64,000 nucleotides of DNA from Candidatus Altimarinota bacterium (GTDB lineage: Bacteria; Patescibacteriota; Gracilibacteria; Peribacterales; Peribacteraceae): positions 2,208 to 66,207 of the forward strand of contig CAVOCY010000002.1 in assembly GCA_963694385.1 (NCBI GenBank), read 5' to 3'. Shown one piece after another: positions 47,735 through 53,121 of this stretch. Under the pieces are notes generated by a model. That model saw only the letters and a program-made list of their open reading frames with translations, did not search any database and was not told the DNA's origin. The position numbers and the translations under genes are program-made. How positions within the stretch are numbered: the first letter of the stretch is position 1; every line of letters starts with the position of its first letter.

Positions 47735-48715
47735 ATGATAAATATTGTTTTTCTCCAGGTAGATTCCGAAGATCAACTACTGACAAAAAAGCGTTTTCCA
47801 GACGCAGAGGTGATCGAAGGTATTCCGGATGATATCGCAGCCGTATGCGCCGATGCAGAGATTGTTTCGATATTCATCGGCATTGCTATCAACGCAGATT
47901 TACTTTCTAAGCTTCCAAAACTTAAGCTTCTCTGCACACGTAGCGTTGGTTTTAATCATATCGATCTTGAGTATTGCGCCAAGAATAATATTACTGTGTG
48001 TCATGTGCCAGATTACGGATCTCATGTGATTGCAGAACATGTGTTTGCATTACTGCTCTCAACTCTACGTCATATTCCTGAGGCTGATAAAAAAGTAGAG
48101 AGCGGGGACTTCGACTATCACGGACTGCGTGGAGTGTCTCTTCGTGGAAAGACATTGGGAATCGTTGGAACAGGAAAAATTGGACGCAAGGCAGCGCAGA
48201 TTGCTGCTGGGTTTGGCATGAGAATCCTTGCAGTTGATAAATGTCGTACGATTGAACTCGAAGATCTGTTGCAGGTGAAGTACACCGAGCTCGATCAACT
48301 TCTCTCCGAGAGTGATATCATTACATTGCATCTTCCTTCTACAGAAGAGACACATCATATGATTGATGCGGATGCATTCTCGAAAATGAAAGAAGGCGTA
48401 TGCTTGGTGAATACTGCGCGCGGAGAGTTAATAGATTCTGATGCACTTCTGGACGCACTAAATTCTGGCAAGGTGAAGCACGCATTGCTTGATGTATTGG
48501 AGCATGAGCATAATTTTGAAGAGAACAAAGCACTGATAACGCACCCGAGTGTTGTTTCTACACCGCATATTGCATTTTATGCGGAAGAGAGCATGCATAA
48601 TATGTACGAAGATGCGTTTACGTCTATTGATGAATACCTACGAGGAGAAAAGCCAGAACATACTGTTAAGCCACCTACGGTGGTGTGTGATTTAGATGGC
48701 GTAAAGAAGGCCTAG
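47735..48715 (+). CDS. D-isomer-specific 2-hydroxyacid dehydrogenase (LdhA/SerA family)
   Basis: GIVGTGKIGRKAAQIAAGFGMRILAVD (GxGxxG), NTARGELID, DVLEHE and TPHIAFY. Confidence 0.88.
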   Translation: MINIVFLQVDSEDQLLTKKRFPDAEVIEGIPDDIAAVCADAEIVSIFIGIAINADLLSKLPKLKLLCTRSVGFNHIDLEYCAKNNITVCHVPDYGSHVIAEHVFALLLSTLRHIPEADKKVESGDFDYHGLRGVSLRGKTLGIVGTGKIGRKAAQIAAGFGMRILAVDKCRTIELEDLLQVKYTELDQLLSESDIITLHLPSTEETHHMIDADAFSKMKEGVCLVNTARGELIDSDALLDALNSGKVKHALLDVLEHEHNFEENKALITHPSVVSTPHIAFYAEESMHNMYEDAFTSIDEYLRGEKPEHTVKPPTVVCDLDGVKKA

Positions 48716-49318
48716 TAGTGTGAGGATGATGGGTTGATGGATCATATAGATTAGCAGGGCATGACGACTAGGGAAGGTGATTAGTGATTGGTGATTGGTG
48801 ATTCGTGATCGAAGATTATTTCGAATATACAGATAGTGGCCGAGACCTGCGCCGATCATCATCAGGCCAAACCAAGGGAGGAGAGGGTAGTAGTCGAGAG
48901 TGGGGAGTGGAGCAGATAGGGTTGGAGCTAGGGTTAGGAGGGCTATCCCTATCAGGATATTTAATTCTTTAAGGCGCTTCAGAAGTATCAAAAGTAACAT
49001 GCCTAGCCCAATACAATGCAGGATGCCGAAGTAGATGAAGGTTGTAGGATCATAGGCGTAGGTAACAACCGAAATCAGAAGTGCACATGCGAGTACGATC
49101 AGAGACCTTTTCAATGGCTTGCTTGAAAAGTTTGTAGCGATACCGGATACAATCAAAAATAGTGAAGCAGTGACAATGCGAAATACTTCCCATGCTTCTC
49201 CGTATAAATCTATCTGCCAATCGTAAAATGCCCAGAGGTCGTATGCAGTGTGATAAACGACCATGAAGATGATGGCGATGGTTCTTAGGAGATCTATTTC
49301 AGTTATACGAGTATTCAT
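48692..49318 (-). CDS. DUF1624/HGSNAT-like membrane acyltransferase-family protein
   Basis: N-terminal EIDLLRTIAIIFMVVYH and a polytopic body. The start is set at ATG 49318, because the longer ORF only translates the heptamer repeat. Confidence 0.65.
   Translation of the reverse strand: MNTRITEIDLLRTIAIIFMVVYHTAYDLWAFYDWQIDLYGEAWEVFRIVTASLFLIVSGIATNFSSKPLKRSLIVLACALLISVVTYAYDPTTFIYFGILHCIGLGMLLLILLKRLKELNILIGIALLTLAPTLSAPLPTLDYYPLLPWFGLMMIGAGLGHYLYIRNNLRSRITNHQSLITFPSRHALLIYMIHQPIILTLLGLLYAI
48776..48810. repeat. tandem heptamer (N)GTGATT x5 inside the DUF1624 gene
   Basis: GGTGATT AGTGATT GGTGATT GGTGATT CGTGATC, read directly from the sequence. Confidence 0.9.
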
Positions 49319-49325
49319 AGGCAAA

Positions 49326-49371
49326 TTAACAGTTAACAATTAACAGGTTAACAGTTAATGGTTAATAGTTA
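49326..49371. repeat. tandem heptamer TTAACAG, about 6.5 degenerate copies, filling an intergenic gap
   Basis: TTAACAG TTAACAA TTAACAG GTTAACAG TTAATGG TTAATAG TTA. Confidence 0.9.
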
Positions 49372-49775
49372 TTTTTTTTAGGCCATAGCATCATTGTACT
49401 GACAACGAGCAAGAACATCACGACAACTCTAAGCAATGGTAAGAATGGTGCTAAGAAGCTAAGGCTTAAGCTAATACCAAACAGTGATAGGGGAATCAGA
49501 AGGCATGCAGGGCAGAGAAGTGTGACGATACCGAGGCTTCCTGCAACGGTTGACGCACGCTTTGCACCTACGGGACATGTGCCTTGCTTTAGGCGAAAGA
49601 ACACGAGTCCGCTATCAAAAGAGAGGAGAGCGATAAGAACGGCGGTATAGATTAATTCAAGTTGTGTTGGTTCTGGTCGTGGGAGCGCACTAAGAATCCA
49701 TGCAAAAAATGCTCCAAGTCCAATTGTGGATAGTATCAATGGACGCCAGAAGTTTTTGGAATGCAGAAATGTCAT
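49362..49775 (-). CDS. hypothetical four-helix membrane protein with intramembrane CPAC (CxxC) motif
   Basis: Four hydrophobic segments. Motifs are GTCPVG in a loop and LLCPACLLIP in helix 3. It starts 4 nt after the upstream stop. Confidence 0.55.
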   Translation of the reverse strand: MTFLHSKNFWRPLILSTIGLGAFFAWILSALPRPEPTQLELIYTAVLIALLSFDSGLVFFRLKQGTCPVGAKRASTVAGSLGIVTLLCPACLLIPLSLFGISLSLSFLAPFLPLLRVVVMFLLVVSTMMLWPKKNNY

Positions 49776-49779
49776 GAAT

Positions 49780-50004
49780 TTATGATGCTTCGATATTGCA
49801 GAAAGGGCAACCAGTACATTCGCTCTTTGAACAATCGCTGGTTCCGTTGCAGCCTTCTTTCTTACAGAGTTCCTCTGCTGGGCAGAAGTAATTGTTAGCA
49901 GAAGCAAGTTCCCCGTTTTTACTGAGGTACATTGTGTAACCAGCAGTCATGACAACAATAGCCAGAACTACGGCAAACCATGGTGATTCCAAAACTGTTT
50001 TCAT
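49780..50004 (-). CDS. small N-terminally anchored Cys-rich peptide (74 aa, 7 Cys in the last 32 residues)
   Basis: TM segment WFAVVLAIVVMTAGYTMYL, followed by CPAEELCKKEGCNGTSDCSKSECTGCPFC. Confidence 0.55.
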   Translation of the reverse strand: MKTVLESPWFAVVLAIVVMTAGYTMYLSKNGELASANNYFCPAEELCKKEGCNGTSDCSKSECTGCPFCNIEAS

Positions 50005-50011
50005 CACTACT

Positions 50012-50020
50012 ATTATATCA
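50012..50020 (-). promoter_or_regulatory. extended -10 element TGATATAAT (minus strand), ending 7 nt before ATG 50004
   Basis: Read on the minus strand from 50020 to 50012. The geometry would give a leaderless transcript. Confidence 0.35.
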
Positions 50021-50076
50021 TAAATATTACTTTAGCAGAAATATGGAGCCAAGTAGTGCAATGCGTATTACAGTGC

Positions 50077-53025
50077 TTATTTACGCTTTTTACGGCGTAT
50101 CCAACTAAAGCCTGCTGCGGCACCCGCTCCTATCACTGCTACAGCAGCAGGCCCTGTATCACCTGCAGGTCCTTGTGTAGCTATAAGAGGTTGCAATTGT
50201 GCTAAGGGTAATTGATATGGAAGTTGCTGGTAAGTTGGATATTGTGGGAAGTTATATTGTTGATATTTCTGGAAATCAGCTGCAATTTTTTCTTGTGGTG
50301 TTTGAATCTCTGATGCGCGTTCTTTTTCTGCAGCTACCTGTGTGTTTTCTGTTCTACAGAAACGGTCACATCCATCATTATTAAGGCGGTTGCCGTCATC
50401 ACACAGTTCTACAGAATCAATGACACTGTCACCACAGCGACTCAGGCTACAGTTGGGTCGACACACCGCATCTGGGGAAGAGGAGTTCTTTTTTCCTTCA
50501 TCGCACTCTTCACCAGGATCAGTGGTTTCATCACCACAGGTCAGAGAGACAAAGCGGCAGTTGCTACATTGGTAGGAGAGGCTTTTGTCATGGGTAGCGT
50601 TTTCACACTGTTCTCCGAGCAGGCTCTGCACGATGCCATCTCCACAGATACCGATTTCCAGTAGACAGGTAGAGTTACAGCCGTCACGGTCTCTACGGTT
50701 TCTGTCGTCACATTCTTCCGGAGGTTCCAACGTTCCATTCCCACAAATAGGGGCTGAGGCGATAAGAGATTCAGTTGCAACAATACTGTCTGGAGTGCTG
50801 TCATCATCACTATCCTCATCACTCTCATCCTCATCACTATCCTCATCACTATCCTCATCACTCTCATCCTCATCACTATCCTCATCACTCTCATCCTCAT
50901 CGGTATCACTAGTCTCACTTGATGCACTGGGAATCGAAAGCGTGATAGAGAGCGCTGATGATCGGAATACACTAATGTGTGAAGATGAAGAAGATTCAAA
51001 GGACACGGATGAAAGTTCACTGAAAATAGTTGTAGATGAAGAAGATGATGGGGACGAAGACGATGACGAAGAAGACGAAGAAGACGAAGAGCTTGATACT
51101 TCTACCCCTTCTCTTTTACATTCTTCATCACAGCCATCGCCGCTTTGTGGTTCACAGGTTCCTCCATAATTTTCACACGCTATATTGGATATTGAATCTC
51201 TACTTCGAGGATTTGACCAGTAGAAGTGGCAATCTCTTCCTTCATATCGTTCCCCTCTAGGACTTTGAATATCGACACACTTTGCGCCGTTATCACATTC
51301 TTCTTCGTGCCCTTCCAGTTTTCTATAGTTTCCAAAATGATCAGTCTCCGAATTATCGACGATGCCGTCTCCACAGAGAGGATTTTTACAAGATTCGCGA
51401 CATTGGGCATTTCCATTTCCTATTTGATTTTGTCCGGGGTCACATTCTTCATCCGGCCAGCCGGGTACATCGGAATCTAGAGTGCCATTTCCACACTGCA
51501 CTTGTCCGGATTTACACGTAGCCGAGCAATAGTTTTCTCCCCACTGTGCTTCATGCACATTGCTTTTGGTACGGCAAAAGTCACCGTCGCCACAACAGGT
51601 ACTTCTTTTGGATGGAGGACACTCGTTACAAGACTCCTCGCTAAAATGACAAATAGAGCCAAGATCACACTCTTCTCCACCTTCTACAGCACCATTACCA
51701 CAGACTGGAACAGTACACTGATTGGAGCATCCATCACCGTCATCTCGGTTTCCATCGTCACATTCTTCATCGTCTGCTGTACCGCGTTCGAGGTCCATTC
51801 CTGAGTTTTGTCGAACACCATCTCCACACCAGCTTGCCTGGCAGTTTCCGTTCCAGCAGAGCACACTGATTCCATCGTCATTATTCGTAATGCACGTATG
51901 TGTGGAAGGATCATTCGTATCGAAATTTCTTCCTTGGCCACAGTCACATTGTTCCTGAAGGCCACTTCCAGGATTATTGGTGTTATCAATAACTCCATCT
52001 CCGCAGAACCAGTTTTCACAATTTGTTCGGCAGGCATTTTTTTCTGTATCTGAATTATCGTCACTATCATCACATTCTTCTCCACTTTGCTTTATCCCAT
52101 CGCCACAGGAGGGGAGTTTGCAATCGTTCGAACATCCATCAGTATCATTCGTATTACCATCATCACATTCTTCATCTCCTTCTTTCGCGCCGTTTCCACA
52201 TTCGGGATCCACTTCACACTTTGATGCTTCGCATGGCGTATACCCATCTGAGCATTGACCATCTTTACAAATGGCAATGTCACATTTCTTGGCACAACCT
52301 GTTGAAAAATCTTCCCATGCAAAGCATTCTGAACAATTGGTCGGAGGACAATTTTCATCTGAAGAACAACTTTGGATAGAATTTTTGCTCGCAGCAGAAC
52401 TACTTCGTGTTATCAGGCTACTAGAGCTGTTTTGATTACTCTCATTACTCTCATTACTCTCATTACTCTCATTACTCTTATTACTCTCATTACTCTTATT
52501 ACTCTCATTACTCTCATTACTCTTATTACTCTCATTACTCTCATTACTCTCATTACTCTTATTACTCTCATTACTCTTATTACTCTCATTACTCTCATTA
52601 CTCTCATTACTCTCATTACTCTCATTACTTGCAGCACTTTGACTACTTGCAGCTTCACTACTACCGCCTATGTCTCCTGCGTCCCCGTCATCACCATTGT
52701 CTCCTGTGTCCCCGTCATCACCATTGTCTCCTGTGTCCCCAGCTCCTCCACCATCACTCCCTCCACCATCATTTCCATCGCATGGTAAGGGAAAGTACTG
52801 ACAATACCCCTCATTGCCATTTCGAATCCAGCAATAATCTGCTGTACAGGAGTCTCCATCATCACATGATGCAATACTAGCTATATCTCCAGGACAACAT
52901 TCTCCAGTAATGAATTCACAAATATTATCAAGAACACCCACTTGTCCAAGTTGAGAGATGCTCACAGTAGATACTATCACTACAAGAATTACAAGAATGC
53001 CGACTCTGTCAAACATGTTACGCAT
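50077..53025 (-). CDS. giant secreted cysteine-rich-repeat protein (about 980 aa) with low-complexity repeat tracts and a C-terminal hydrophobic anchor plus basic tail
   Basis: N-terminal signal or anchor. It has about a dozen modules of the form CG(D/N)G...(E)ECDDGN...DGC...C (Myxococcus-type cysteine-rich repeat pattern). Low-complexity tracts are (SNE/SNK)n, poly-Ser and (DEDSDEDES)n. The C-terminus is GPAAVAVIGAGAAAGFSWIRRKKRK. The start is ATG 53025 or 53016 (the ORF opens with TTG at 53079). Confidence 0.85.
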   Translation of the reverse strand: MRNMFDRVGILVILVVIVSTVSISQLGQVGVLDNICEFITGECCPGDIASIASCDDGDSCTADYCWIRNGNEGYCQYFPLPCDGNDGGGSDGGGAGDTGDNGDDGDTGDNGDDGDAGDIGGSSEAASSQSAASNESNESNESNESNESNKSNESNKSNESNESNESNKSNESNESNKSNESNKSNESNESNESNESNQNSSSSLITRSSSAASKNSIQSCSSDENCPPTNCSECFAWEDFSTGCAKKCDIAICKDGQCSDGYTPCEASKCEVDPECGNGAKEGDEECDDGNTNDTDGCSNDCKLPSCGDGIKQSGEECDDSDDNSDTEKNACRTNCENWFCGDGVIDNTNNPGSGLQEQCDCGQGRNFDTNDPSTHTCITNNDDGISVLCWNGNCQASWCGDGVRQNSGMDLERGTADDEECDDGNRDDGDGCSNQCTVPVCGNGAVEGGEECDLGSICHFSEESCNECPPSKRSTCCGDGDFCRTKSNVHEAQWGENYCSATCKSGQVQCGNGTLDSDVPGWPDEECDPGQNQIGNGNAQCRESCKNPLCGDGIVDNSETDHFGNYRKLEGHEEECDNGAKCVDIQSPRGERYEGRDCHFYWSNPRSRDSISNIACENYGGTCEPQSGDGCDEECKREGVEVSSSSSSSSSSSSSSSPSSSSSTTIFSELSSVSFESSSSSHISVFRSSALSITLSIPSASSETSDTDEDESDEDSDEDESDEDSDEDSDEDESDEDSDDDSTPDSIVATESLIASAPICGNGTLEPPEECDDRNRRDRDGCNSTCLLEIGICGDGIVQSLLGEQCENATHDKSLSYQCSNCRFVSLTCGDETTDPGEECDEGKKNSSSPDAVCRPNCSLSRCGDSVIDSVELCDDGNRLNNDGCDRFCRTENTQVAAEKERASEIQTPQEKIAADFQKYQQYNFPQYPTYQQLPYQLPLAQLQPLIATQGPAGDTGPAAVAVIGAGAAAGFSWIRRKKRK
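50801..50903. repeat. in-frame tandem repeats encoding the acidic (DEDSDEDES)n tract
   Basis: Reiterated ATCCTCATCACT(A/C)TC-type units, read directly from the sequence. Confidence 0.85.
51035..51091. repeat. GAAGA(C/T)-type triplet reiteration encoding a poly-Ser run on the minus strand
   Basis: Read directly from the sequence. Confidence 0.8.
52435..52629. repeat. about 21 tandem copies of the 9-mer ATTACTCT(C/T), encoding (SNE/SNK)n
   Basis: A near-perfect 9-nt periodicity over 195 nt. Confidence 0.95.
52671..52740. repeat. 27-nt tandem repeat, 2.6 copies, encoding GDTGDNGDD units
   Basis: TGTCTCCTG(C/T)GTCCCCGTCATCACCAT repeated. Confidence 0.9.
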
Positions 53026-53073
53026 ATAAGTATTTAAATTATAGCAAATTATTAAAAATAAATTTCTTGCCAA

Positions 53074-53100
53074 TAACAAAAAACCCCGTATACACGGGGT
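53074..53100 (-). terminator. intrinsic terminator after rplL
   Basis: On the minus strand: ACCCCGT-GTAT-ACGGGGT followed by TTTTTGTTA. Confidence 0.75.
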
Positions 53101-53121
53101 TTGATGATAATCAGCTTGTGA

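Follow-up and report, generated by a model that had tools for sequence, protein, structure and literature searches.

The 64,000-nucleotide stretch of contig CAVOCY010000002.1 analyzed here (the window), from a member of the Peribacteraceae, carries on its minus strand 2 small adjacent genes, one for a 74-amino-acid, N-terminally anchored peptide with 7 cysteines and one for a 137-amino-acid membrane protein with 4 predicted spans and a CxxC motif inside the membrane. Sequence comparisons indicate that these 2 genes form a real, conserved, and self-contained operon native to Peribacteria, placed after rplJ-rplL whatever else inserts there, and that the core hairpin of the four-span family (its last 2 spans) is a remote homologue of the MerT/MerC hairpin. 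By analogy with the Mer system, we tentatively propose that the pair may act as a thiol relay of the Mer type whose most likely cargo is a soft metal ion, a reading to which we give slightly less than even weight. The features that carry this proposal are the following:

49780-50004, minus strand: gene of the 74-amino-acid peptide (ATG at 50004, stop at 49780).
50012-50020, minus strand: extended -10 promoter element TGATATAAT, predicted from the sequence and from a box that recurs in Peribacteria loci.
49362-49775, minus strand: gene of the 137-amino-acid membrane protein, with 4 predicted spans, of an unannotated family.
49503-49514, minus strand: codons C88-P89-A90-C91, the predicted intramembrane CxxC with its invariant cysteine pair.
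49575-49577, minus strand: codon of C67 (GTCPVG), a cysteine that 25 of 25 sequences share and that lies in the lysine- and arginine-rich (K/R-rich) loop joining helices 2 and 3.

The peptide begins with an N-terminal anchor or signal sequence (SPW...GY), from which a short stretch of small residues leads to a tail of ~30 residues that ends in CPFC and in which the 7 cysteines are spaced exactly C-x5-C-x4-C-x5-C-x4-C-x2-C-x2-C. A first-pass annotation, made from the sequence alone, had described the 74-residue anchored peptide, this cysteine spacing, and a separate extended -10 element, TGATATAAT, all correctly by sequence. A word-indexed homologue search with the peptide gave itself and one relative, and orthologues were recovered from the DNA 5' of homologues of the four-span gene. 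Read in this way, 23 of 27 Peribacteria loci had, directly upstream of the four-span gene, an open reading frame (ORF) of 70-85 amino acids that stops a few bases before it. In an alignment of 20 peptides, Y24, C42, P43, C48, C53, C64, C67, and C70 were invariant, and C59 was conserved in at least 90%. The anchors follow SPW[LF]..LAI..M..GY or PWL..IGIAGL.VGY (for example, SPWFPISLAIAGLIVGY), and the closing motif of the tail is CP[FGHAY]C in one Peribacteria clade and CPGNC in the other. At loci L016 and L018, rplL is followed directly by the four-span gene without the peptide, and at L020, the anchor is kept and the cysteine tail is lost. The conservation of the 2 small genes, on which the first-pass annotation depended, is borne out by the presence of the pair in 23 of 27 loci, by the invariant cysteines, and by ratios of nonsynonymous to synonymous substitution rates (dN/dS) of 0.14 and 0.24 for the peptide against 2 relatives. 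Sequence and profile searches with the peptide gave no Pfam family, no NCBIfam match above threshold, and no meaningful PDB match.

The promoter element TGATATAAT ends 7 nucleotides before the peptide ATG; it has no -35 and was not listed by a generic -35/-10 scan. A TGnTA(T/C)AAT-like box lies 4-11 nucleotides before the peptide start in ~15 of the 17 Peribacteria loci inspected, irrespective of the upstream gene. Because the box recurs whatever lies upstream, the pair has its own extended -10 promoter, from which the 2 genes are co-transcribed, and since this promoter lies so near the ATG, the mRNA of the pair is probably leaderless, or near-leaderless.

The 137-amino-acid protein had 57 homologues at E ≤ 1e-23, and all of the named ones belong to Peribacteria/Peregrinibacteria, the same names being carried by 24 of 24 species-level genome matches. 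It has 3 cysteines only, 2 in CPAC (residues 88-91) and C67 in the preceding loop; C67 (GTCPxG), C88, and C91 (LLCPxC) are invariant among Peribacteria homologues (alignment A1). Searched by sequence in Pfam, NCBIfam, and the PDB, it had no match above threshold. A Peribacteria profile searched against 1.8 billion representative proteins identified a wider family of 140-170 amino acids (E 5e-13 to 1e-3) that falls into 59 clusters at 50% identity, and a wider-family profile search of the word-indexed database returned 10 proteins. The invariant columns of the wider-family alignment (A2) are the 2 cysteines of the CxxC in helix 3 and the glycine of an FG pair 9 residues past the second cysteine, and nothing else; in many members, further cysteines occur as a CxxC in a K/R-rich C-terminal tail or singly in loop 2 or loop 1. 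The window protein is without the 7-residue ELGYFGD of loop 1 (at residues 26-27, region 49682-49690) that is present in 23 of 24 other aligned Peribacteria homologues; the sequence without it was found on 16 contigs and is therefore a real variant, not an assembly error. Two wider-family members, P0122 and P0121 (loci L031 4154-5450 and L032 1088-1543), cannot be translated there by the standard code, a sign that their genomes may be recoded (UGA), as is typical of Gracilibacteria.

In the AlphaFold2 model of the 137-amino-acid protein (predicted local distance difference test [pLDDT] 82, predicted template modeling score [pTM] 0.71), helices cover residues 7-30, 38-64, 69-86, 89-98, and 102-130. 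Helix 3 is kinked exactly at C88-P89, and C88 caps the N-terminus of the short helix (89-98). The first-pass annotation had described a four-helix protein with CPAC in helix 3; the 4 spans and the position of the motif stand in the model, which with its kink at CPAC is no plain four-helix bundle. The average number of lysines plus arginines is 1.9 in the N-terminal tail, 4.3 in loop 2, ~1.8 in the C-terminal tail, and 0 in loop 3, loop 1 is net acidic, and the same distribution is seen across the wider family. The positive-inside rule would put loop 2, with C67, and both termini in the cytoplasm, and we infer a protein of 4 spans with its CxxC in the outer half of the membrane. The additional cysteine that the first-pass annotation had noted in the preceding loop is C67, and this K/R-rich loop is probably cytoplasmic and not outward-facing.

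We compared the family with Mer transporters by using a plasmid-verified MerT, 6 diverse MerT sequences, and Tn21 MerC as queries; the argument passes from the window protein to the wider family by significant HMMER matches and from the wider family to the Mer superfamily by profile-profile alignment. The broad family aligned with the six-sequence MerT profile in hhalign with a probability of 93.3% (E 2.7e-7, 65 columns), placing the family CxxC on the cysteine pair of the first MerT transmembrane helix (TM1), PY on PY, and the C-terminal CxxC on the cytoplasmic C-x-P-G-x-x-C of MerT. The probability was 82.5% when the alignment headed by the window protein was compared with MerT, and MerC gave 50%, with CAAC aligned with the CxxC. 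The score of the real MerT alignment (44.6) exceeded those of all 120 block-shuffled MerT alignments (maximum, 33.3), and a reversed-profile control gave 1%. With a single MerT sequence, the probability was 62.6%, and 1 of 100 block-10 shuffles scored higher. Mer models were also the most recurrent in an NCBIfam scan of 30 members (MerTP in 5 members, MerT in 2 + 2, and MerC at 4.8e-5), all below threshold, and MerC matched the family member of L039 in tblastn with 46% identity over 39 amino acids. Many relatives have a probably cytoplasmic cysteine pair after the hairpin, as the C-terminal CxxC; the window protein has none there and carries its single C67 before the hairpin. The metal-handling option that the first-pass annotation had offered fits this relationship, which is one of remote homology only. 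The same annotation had held that a match of the 137-amino-acid protein to an unrelated family such as a metal transporter would speak against its proposal, and the alignment with the metal-transporter superfamily, remote as it is, is largely a match of that kind.

We found no comparable relationship with known thiol oxidoreductases of the membrane. No Pfam match at E ≤ 1 to DsbB (PF02600), VKOR (PF07884), CcdA/DsbD (PF02683, PF13386), or any other family was obtained for the window protein or any of 30 members, and none to MauE (PF07291) among the family members scanned. The hhalign probability was 0.1-0.6% against Escherichia coli DsbB (0.2% in the control run beside MerT) and 0.2-0.6% against the Pfam-verified VKOR of L052 (0.6% in the same control run). 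Foldseek searches of the PDB with 2 AlphaFold2 models (pLDDT 73 and 82) gave a best E of 2.9 and TM-scores of at most 0.41; the matches were noise (TSPO and P-type ATPase fragments), with no DsbB, VKOR, CcdA, or Mer chain among them. The kinship with DsbB/VKOR-type enzymes that the first-pass annotation had suggested thus fails by Pfam, by hhalign, and by Foldseek of the models. Identity with DsbB, which carries one extracytoplasmic cysteine pair (CxxC) in loop 1 and another in loop 2, was rejected for the lack of these pairs, the protein having 3 cysteines and none in loops 1 and 3. VKOR, with its loop cysteine pair and a CxxC where TM4 begins, was discarded for want of any Pfam, hhalign, or Foldseek match, and CcdA/DsbD was set aside because 4 spans with one CxxC in one helix differ from 6 spans with one cysteine in each PCxxP helix.

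To see what occupies the position of the peptide in other lineages, we surveyed 25 loci of non-Peribacteria relatives, some of them gathered with a six-sequence sub-clade alignment that samples one clade. An anchored DsbA-like protein with CPxC lies immediately upstream of the four-span gene in 13 of the 25 loci and in the same gene string in 3 more, at gaps down to 7-21 nucleotides; in 5 sequences, the active site is CPFC in 4 and CPNC in 1. A Pfam Thioredoxin_4/DSBA match was verified for L030, L033, L034, L035/36, L039, L043, L045, L047, L050, and L051, and the assignment was made from size and anchor alone for L040, L041, L044, L046, and L049. Metal- or sulfur-related genes recur nearby, including a P-type ATPase with an HMA domain directly upstream (L042), a YHS Cu-ATPase (L035), and ZIP (L030 and L034), along with cupredoxin-rhodanese (L033), Fur (L032), DUF1573-rhodanese lipoproteins, DUF302, and peroxiredoxins; in L052, the gene string of the family member also includes a true VKOR. 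Since the four-span family is coupled to DsbA-like oxidoreductases in other lineages, a role in thiol chemistry at the membrane is likely for it. The idea of thiol chemistry in the first-pass annotation thus survives in the form of this coupling, and its DsbB/VKOR ancestry does not.

The anchor of the DsbA-like proteins of L030 and L034, NPWLVTTFTLAGLIVGY, resembles that of the peptide (SPWF..AGLIVGY). With a hidden Markov model of the peptide anchor, these 2 proteins ranked first and second among 537 ORFs of non-Peribacteria loci (E ~0.003), and their four-span partners belong to the non-Peribacteria clade with the best scores against the Peribacteria profile (P0082, E 5e-13; relatives P0118 and P0119). 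No DsbA-like or VKOR gene was found in the window or the Peribacteria loci, where there were weak anchor matches only. Modest evidence therefore suggests that the Peribacteria peptide sits in the DsbA slot and keeps a DsbA-type anchor, from which it can be argued that its cysteine tail faces outward.

Several relatives show further arrangements. In P0102 (388 amino acids), a four-span CxxC protein of the family is naturally fused to one more span and to a C-terminal domain of ~200 amino acids with CEFCCG...CGCAHS, which had no Pfam match; the logic of this arrangement is like that of a MerT-MerP-type fusion. L052 (680-6910) and L051 (1493-5865) share a same-strand string of a DsbA-like gene, a DUF1573 lipoprotein, a DUF1573-rhodanese lipoprotein, DUF302, the four-span member, and a protein of ~475 amino acids, which looks like an envelope thiol, sulfur, or metal operon; its contig of ~1.2 Mb has a second family copy next to GAPDH. 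In L033 (1847-2374), a 175-amino-acid, anchored, His-rich protein (HWHSP..., GLVHGHSDGVAH) is encoded between the DsbA-like gene and the four-span member, with its stop overlapping the four-span start, and is possibly a metal-binding accessory protein.

In mercury transport, the ion moves from MerP to the TM1 cysteine pair of MerT and on to the cytoplasmic cysteine pair of MerT. By analogy with this relay, the 74-amino-acid product, anchored at the outer face, would display its seven-cysteine tail ending in CPxC or CPxxC as the first station; the intramembrane CxxC of the 137-amino-acid protein would be the second; and a cytoplasmic cysteine, in loop 2 here and in the C-terminal CxxC of many relatives, would be the third. 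Thiol-bound cargo would be passed across the membrane from station to station, the preferred cargo being a soft metal ion like Cu(I), Zn(II), Cd, or Hg. We infer the topology, the direction of transfer, and the nature of the cargo. A soft metal is preferred because metal transporters are the best homologues, because one outside partner can stand in for another, and because metal genes recur near relatives. As the partner is variously a thioredoxin fold, a seven-cysteine tail (CPxC/CPxxC), a fused cysteine domain, or none, a MerP-like role in presenting a ligand is favored over catalysis.

Several observations weigh against this proposal. The window protein itself scored 10.6 bits against merT_RC607 of NCBIfam (cut-off, 130), and the Peribacteria-only profile A1 is weak against MerT (hhalign E 0.017), so the link to Mer passes through the wider family. 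No MerR, MerP, or MerA was found by tblastn with Tn21 proteins in the window or any fetched locus, and Foldseek against the PDB gave no fold-level support for any family, Mer included. The topology is based on the positive-inside rule and the AlphaFold2 model, and the charge flanking the peptide anchor is nearly balanced, so the orientation of the tail follows mainly from the analogy with DsbA. DsbA-like partners are, moreover, classically redox enzymes and not metallochaperones, and the peroxiredoxin genes and the VKOR near family members in relatives favor a redox cargo.

These last points lead to a redox relay, in which the four-span protein would pass reducing equivalents, or withdraw electrons, between the cytoplasm and a thiol partner tethered on the extracytoplasmic side; we regard this as rather doubtful, and less probable than a metal cargo. 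The family would then be a quinone-independent functional analogue of CcdA/DsbD or of DsbB/VKOR/MauE, serving the cysteine-rich exoproteome generally and not an adjacent gene, with the seven-cysteine mini-domain in place of the DsbA-like enzyme in Peribacteria. It would account for the DsbA-like Thioredoxin_4 genes that lie directly upstream in several independent clades at gaps of 7-21 nucleotides and for the peroxiredoxin and AhpC-like neighbors at the same loci. The proline after the first CxxC cysteine and the placement at the N-terminus of a short helix in the model are as in redox-active CxxC sites, and a conserved cytoplasmic cysteine suits a CcdA-like transmembrane relay. The Peribacteria secretome is unusually rich in cysteine (PMC4736985), and known disulfide pathways have acknowledged gaps (bioRxiv 10.64898/2026.03.05.709764). 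However, no sequence or fold relationship with DsbB, VKOR, or DsbD/CcdA was found, and the best remote homologues are metal transporters. A 30-residue cysteine tail is no substitute for a thioredoxin-fold catalyst, and one Peribacteria clade has CPGNC, not CxxC. A true VKOR is present in the L052 string, and Ca. Peribacter riflensis encodes, elsewhere in its genome, a bona fide DsbB (KEGG HMM E 4e-37) and 2 DsbA-like proteins (PMC4736985); the family is therefore not simply a substitute for a missing oxidase.

A broader version of this idea, which we hold to be unlikely, and somewhat more so than the redox relay, is that the four-span CxxC family is an unrecognized, Mer-derived class of membrane partners of anchored DsbA-like oxidoreductases, found in Candidate Phyla Radiation (CPR) bacteria and in some archaeal-looking contexts and acting as a quinone-independent relay; Peribacteria would have swapped the thioredoxin fold for the seven-cysteine mini-domain and kept the anchor.

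The neighbors of the pair on the minus strand include a giant cysteine-rich protein, for which the first-pass annotation had proposed that the 2 small genes form a dedicated maturation module. The features concerned are the following:

50077-53025, minus strand: gene of the giant cysteine-rich protein (likely ATG at 53025, ~982 amino acids; whole ORF, 50077-53079).
53081-53102, minus strand: intrinsic-terminator-like hairpin (stem and T run) 3' of rplL and directly 5' of the giant gene.
48692-49339, minus strand: DUF1624/HGSNAT_cat membrane acyltransferase-like gene (PF07786, E 1.3e-48).

The giant protein contains 75 cysteines, 11 CG(D/N)G modules, and 8 EECD motifs. It matched DUF4215 with 66 bits (cut-off, 27; E 3.7e-18; 7 stretches) and TIGR02232, myxo_disulf_rpt, with 85.5 bits (cut-off, 20.8; E 1.5e-24; 6 stretches), and by these matches it is a clear and ordinary member of the Myxococcus-type cysteine-rich repeat proteins, as had been recognized from its ~980-residue repeat pattern. 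Large cysteine-rich extracellular proteins are a published hallmark of Peribacteria genomes (PMC4736985). The protein runs from an N-terminal hydrophobic segment through SNESNE and acidic low-complexity tracts and the repeats to a C-terminal hydrophobic segment and an RRKKRK tail, the last 2 being kept in L006 and L007. It scored 12.5 bits against TIGR01167 (LPXTG; cut-off, 15.9), with PAGDTG or PVGDTG instead of LPXTG, and its C-terminal sequence LPLAQLQPLIATQGP(A/V)GDTGPAAVAVIGAGAAAGFSWIRRKKRK is near-identical among 3 orthologues (listed at 53025-53079, residues 973-1000) and may be a variant sorting signal. Near-perfect in-frame tandem repeats were identified in the gene at 52435-52629, 52671-52740, 50801-50901, and 51034-51090, with a 9-bp unit repeated 21.7 times in the SNESNE tracts and 27-bp and 39-bp units in the acidic DEDS tracts; regions of this kind typically vary in length in surface proteins.

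That the 2 small genes serve this protein alone, as a private pair for its oxidative folding or maturation, is the least probable of the readings considered here, and we think it very improbable. The basis of this reading is the same-strand adjacency in the window, L006, and L007, and the 75 cysteines of the giant protein that need handling outside the cell. Synteny was examined in the 27 Peribacteria loci, 21 of which are informative in having enough upstream flank. The giant gene lies upstream of the peptide in only 3 of these 21, namely the window, L006, and L007 (cysteine content of the upstream giant proteins, 7.5-9.9%), and is missing from the slot in the other 18, including the close relative L008, where rplL lies directly 5' of the peptide gene, while the pair persists. 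In the other Peribacteria loci, the slot 5' of the peptide is empty or holds a cysteine-poor protein of 425-680 amino acids, a histidine phosphatase, or a small zinc-ribbon gene. The small genes also have their own conserved promoter box, and family members of other lineages have no such giant neighbor. In the gene table of Ca. Peribacter riflensis, a genome with ~20 cysteine-rich giants, rplL is followed directly by HGSNAT, with no peptide/four-span pair between them (PMC4736985). Since no more than 3 of the 21 loci have the giant gene upstream, it is a lineage-specific insertion and no partner of the pair, and the adjacency itself, on this comparison of loci, is a lineage-specific accident. 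Synteny of the pair with cysteine-rich proteins in relatives, which the first-pass annotation had made decisive for its proposal, was largely not found, and the dedicated module is abandoned here in favor of the relay. Among the genes found in the slot is a protein of 94-98 amino acids, conserved in one Peribacteria clade (L017 3847-4131, L021 92-388, L022 4202-4486, L026 5314-5604, and L029 5333-5626), with a MADQQ(L/V/I) start, a CRDCG motif, and 9 cysteines in CxxC pairs; from its sequence, it looks like a zinc-ribbon protein unrelated to the seven-cysteine peptide.

The 7 cysteines within a tail of ~30 residues would also suit a secreted bioactive peptide (a bacteriocin, toxin, or signal) released from a cleaved signal peptide, with the four-span protein providing its immunity or export. 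In most orthologues, the hydrophobic segment is followed by small residues that recall an AxA cleavage site, and the best PDB profile matches of the peptide were signal-peptide-bearing precursors of three-finger toxins, with which it shares a layout and no homology. We nevertheless consider this improbable, only a little less so than a private maturation pair: the pair is core-like, with a fixed place by ribosomal genes across the whole class, unlike sporadic bacteriocin loci; no modifying enzyme, protease, or ABC exporter is adjacent; and the four-span family is widespread without such peptides. The anchor (PW...GY) is itself conserved, is kept in L020 despite the decay of the tail, and resembles DsbA-like anchors, and a cleaved secreted peptide was dropped as the main reading for this conservation and resemblance.

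The first-pass annotation had placed 4 genes on the minus strand, and their order and spacings are as it described: the peptide ATG lies 72 nucleotides past the stop of the giant gene, the gap between the peptide and 137-amino-acid genes is 4 nucleotides, and the fourth gene is a DUF1624 acyltransferase-like gene with a full-length HGSNAT_cat match (PF07786 profile positions 1-222 of 222, E 1.3e-48) that begins ~22 nucleotides 3' of the four-span gene. The hairpin at 53081-53102 has a stem of 9 pairs (5 G-C) followed by the T run. An HGSNAT-like ORF with an EIDLLRT... N-terminus lies at most ~1.5 kb downstream of the four-span gene in ~20 of 27 Peribacteria loci, and in L031, an HGSNAT_cat gene is the upstream neighbor of a distant family member, an echo of the arrangement in Peribacteria. 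HGSNAT as an obligate third component was rejected, being absent or separated in several loci and occurring without the pair in Ca. P. riflensis. A heptamer, TTAACAG (coding strand, CTGTTAA), is repeated 6.4 times at 49326-49371, covering the stop of the four-span gene and the region of the HGSNAT start, and may be prone to slippage or have a regulatory role; the 2 genes abut without the heptamer spacer in L006, a close relative. The genes around the module are collinear with those of Peribacteria contigs (relA, dtd, rplJ, rplL, LCP, MFS, lexA, and dinB), and the other large ORFs of the window encode ordinary housekeeping proteins (H+-PPase, CTP synthase, UvrD, PNPase, a PabAB-like fusion, and an SLH protein).

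Peribacteria and other CPR bacteria combine unusually cysteine-rich exported proteomes with a minimal redox metabolism, and we know of no obvious quinone synthesis in them. A conserved, previously unannotated thiol relay could explain the uptake of thiophilic metals or the movement of redox equivalents across their membranes. The literature searched contained no description of the four-span family, the seven-cysteine peptide, or any Mer-like partner for DsbA-like proteins; what would be new is the architecture, the partners, and the genomic role of a thiol relay of the Mer superfamily. The giant protein and HGSNAT are ordinary members of known families. According to a study of MauE, ~20% of bacterial species are without any known disulfide-forming membrane enzyme, and further disulfide pathways are still undiscovered (bioRxiv 10.64898/2026.03.05.709764); the four-span family is a concrete candidate for part of this gap. 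If it is indeed a class of DsbA partners, it would be a distinct solution joining DsbB, VKOR, MauE, and DsbD/CcdA, and if the relay is true, the Mer transporter fold would extend past mobile mercury-resistance operons to core chromosomal functions.

The giant protein is of the same kind as the described TIGR02232/DUF4215 proteins of Peribacteria, its sole oddity being that, in one sub-lineage, its gene has been inserted between the peptide operon and rplL. In the family relatives, a small multispan protein with an essential-looking CxxC, encoded next to an anchored DsbA-like thioredoxin, recalls DsbA-DsbB, MdbA-VKOR, and MauE, and in the model, the CxxC at a helix N-terminus near the outer face is placed as in DsbB/VKOR. 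However, there is no homology with these enzymes, the window protein has no second extracytoplasmic cysteine pair, the conserved cytoplasmic-side cysteine of the family would be superfluous for a quinone-coupled oxidase, and a true VKOR coexists in the L052 operon as a true DsbB does in Ca. P. riflensis. In CcdA/DsbD and ScsB-ScsC, intramembrane cysteines similarly link cytoplasmic thiols to an extracytoplasmic partner of thioredoxin fold, and the copper- and metal-related neighbors of the family relatives recall the ScsB-ScsC copper-stress pairs; unlike CcdA/DsbD, the family has 4 spans and not 6, and no member matched a DsbD or DsbD_2 model.

Among the closest known systems are the mercuric-ion transporters of the Mer superfamily (MerT, MerC, and MerF) with their periplasmic partner MerP. 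The likeness to Mer lies in the cysteine pair inside the first helix of the hairpin, the turn with small residues or FG, the PY-containing start of the second helix, the probably cytoplasmic cysteines after the hairpin in many family relatives, and the small extracytoplasmic cysteine partner encoded alongside; MerC, of ~140 amino acids, also has 4 spans and a CxxC, as does the 137-amino-acid protein. The differences are that all matches are far under the curated Mer cut-offs, that the hairpin of the family is formed by helices 3 and 4 with 2 extra helices before it, and that its cysteine pair is CxxC and not the CC of MerT. Its partners are the anchored seven-cysteine peptide or DsbA-like thioredoxins, whereas MerP has the HMA fold, and in Peribacteria, its gene is a conserved chromosomal one beside ribosomal genes, whereas the Mer genes belong to a mobile resistance operon.

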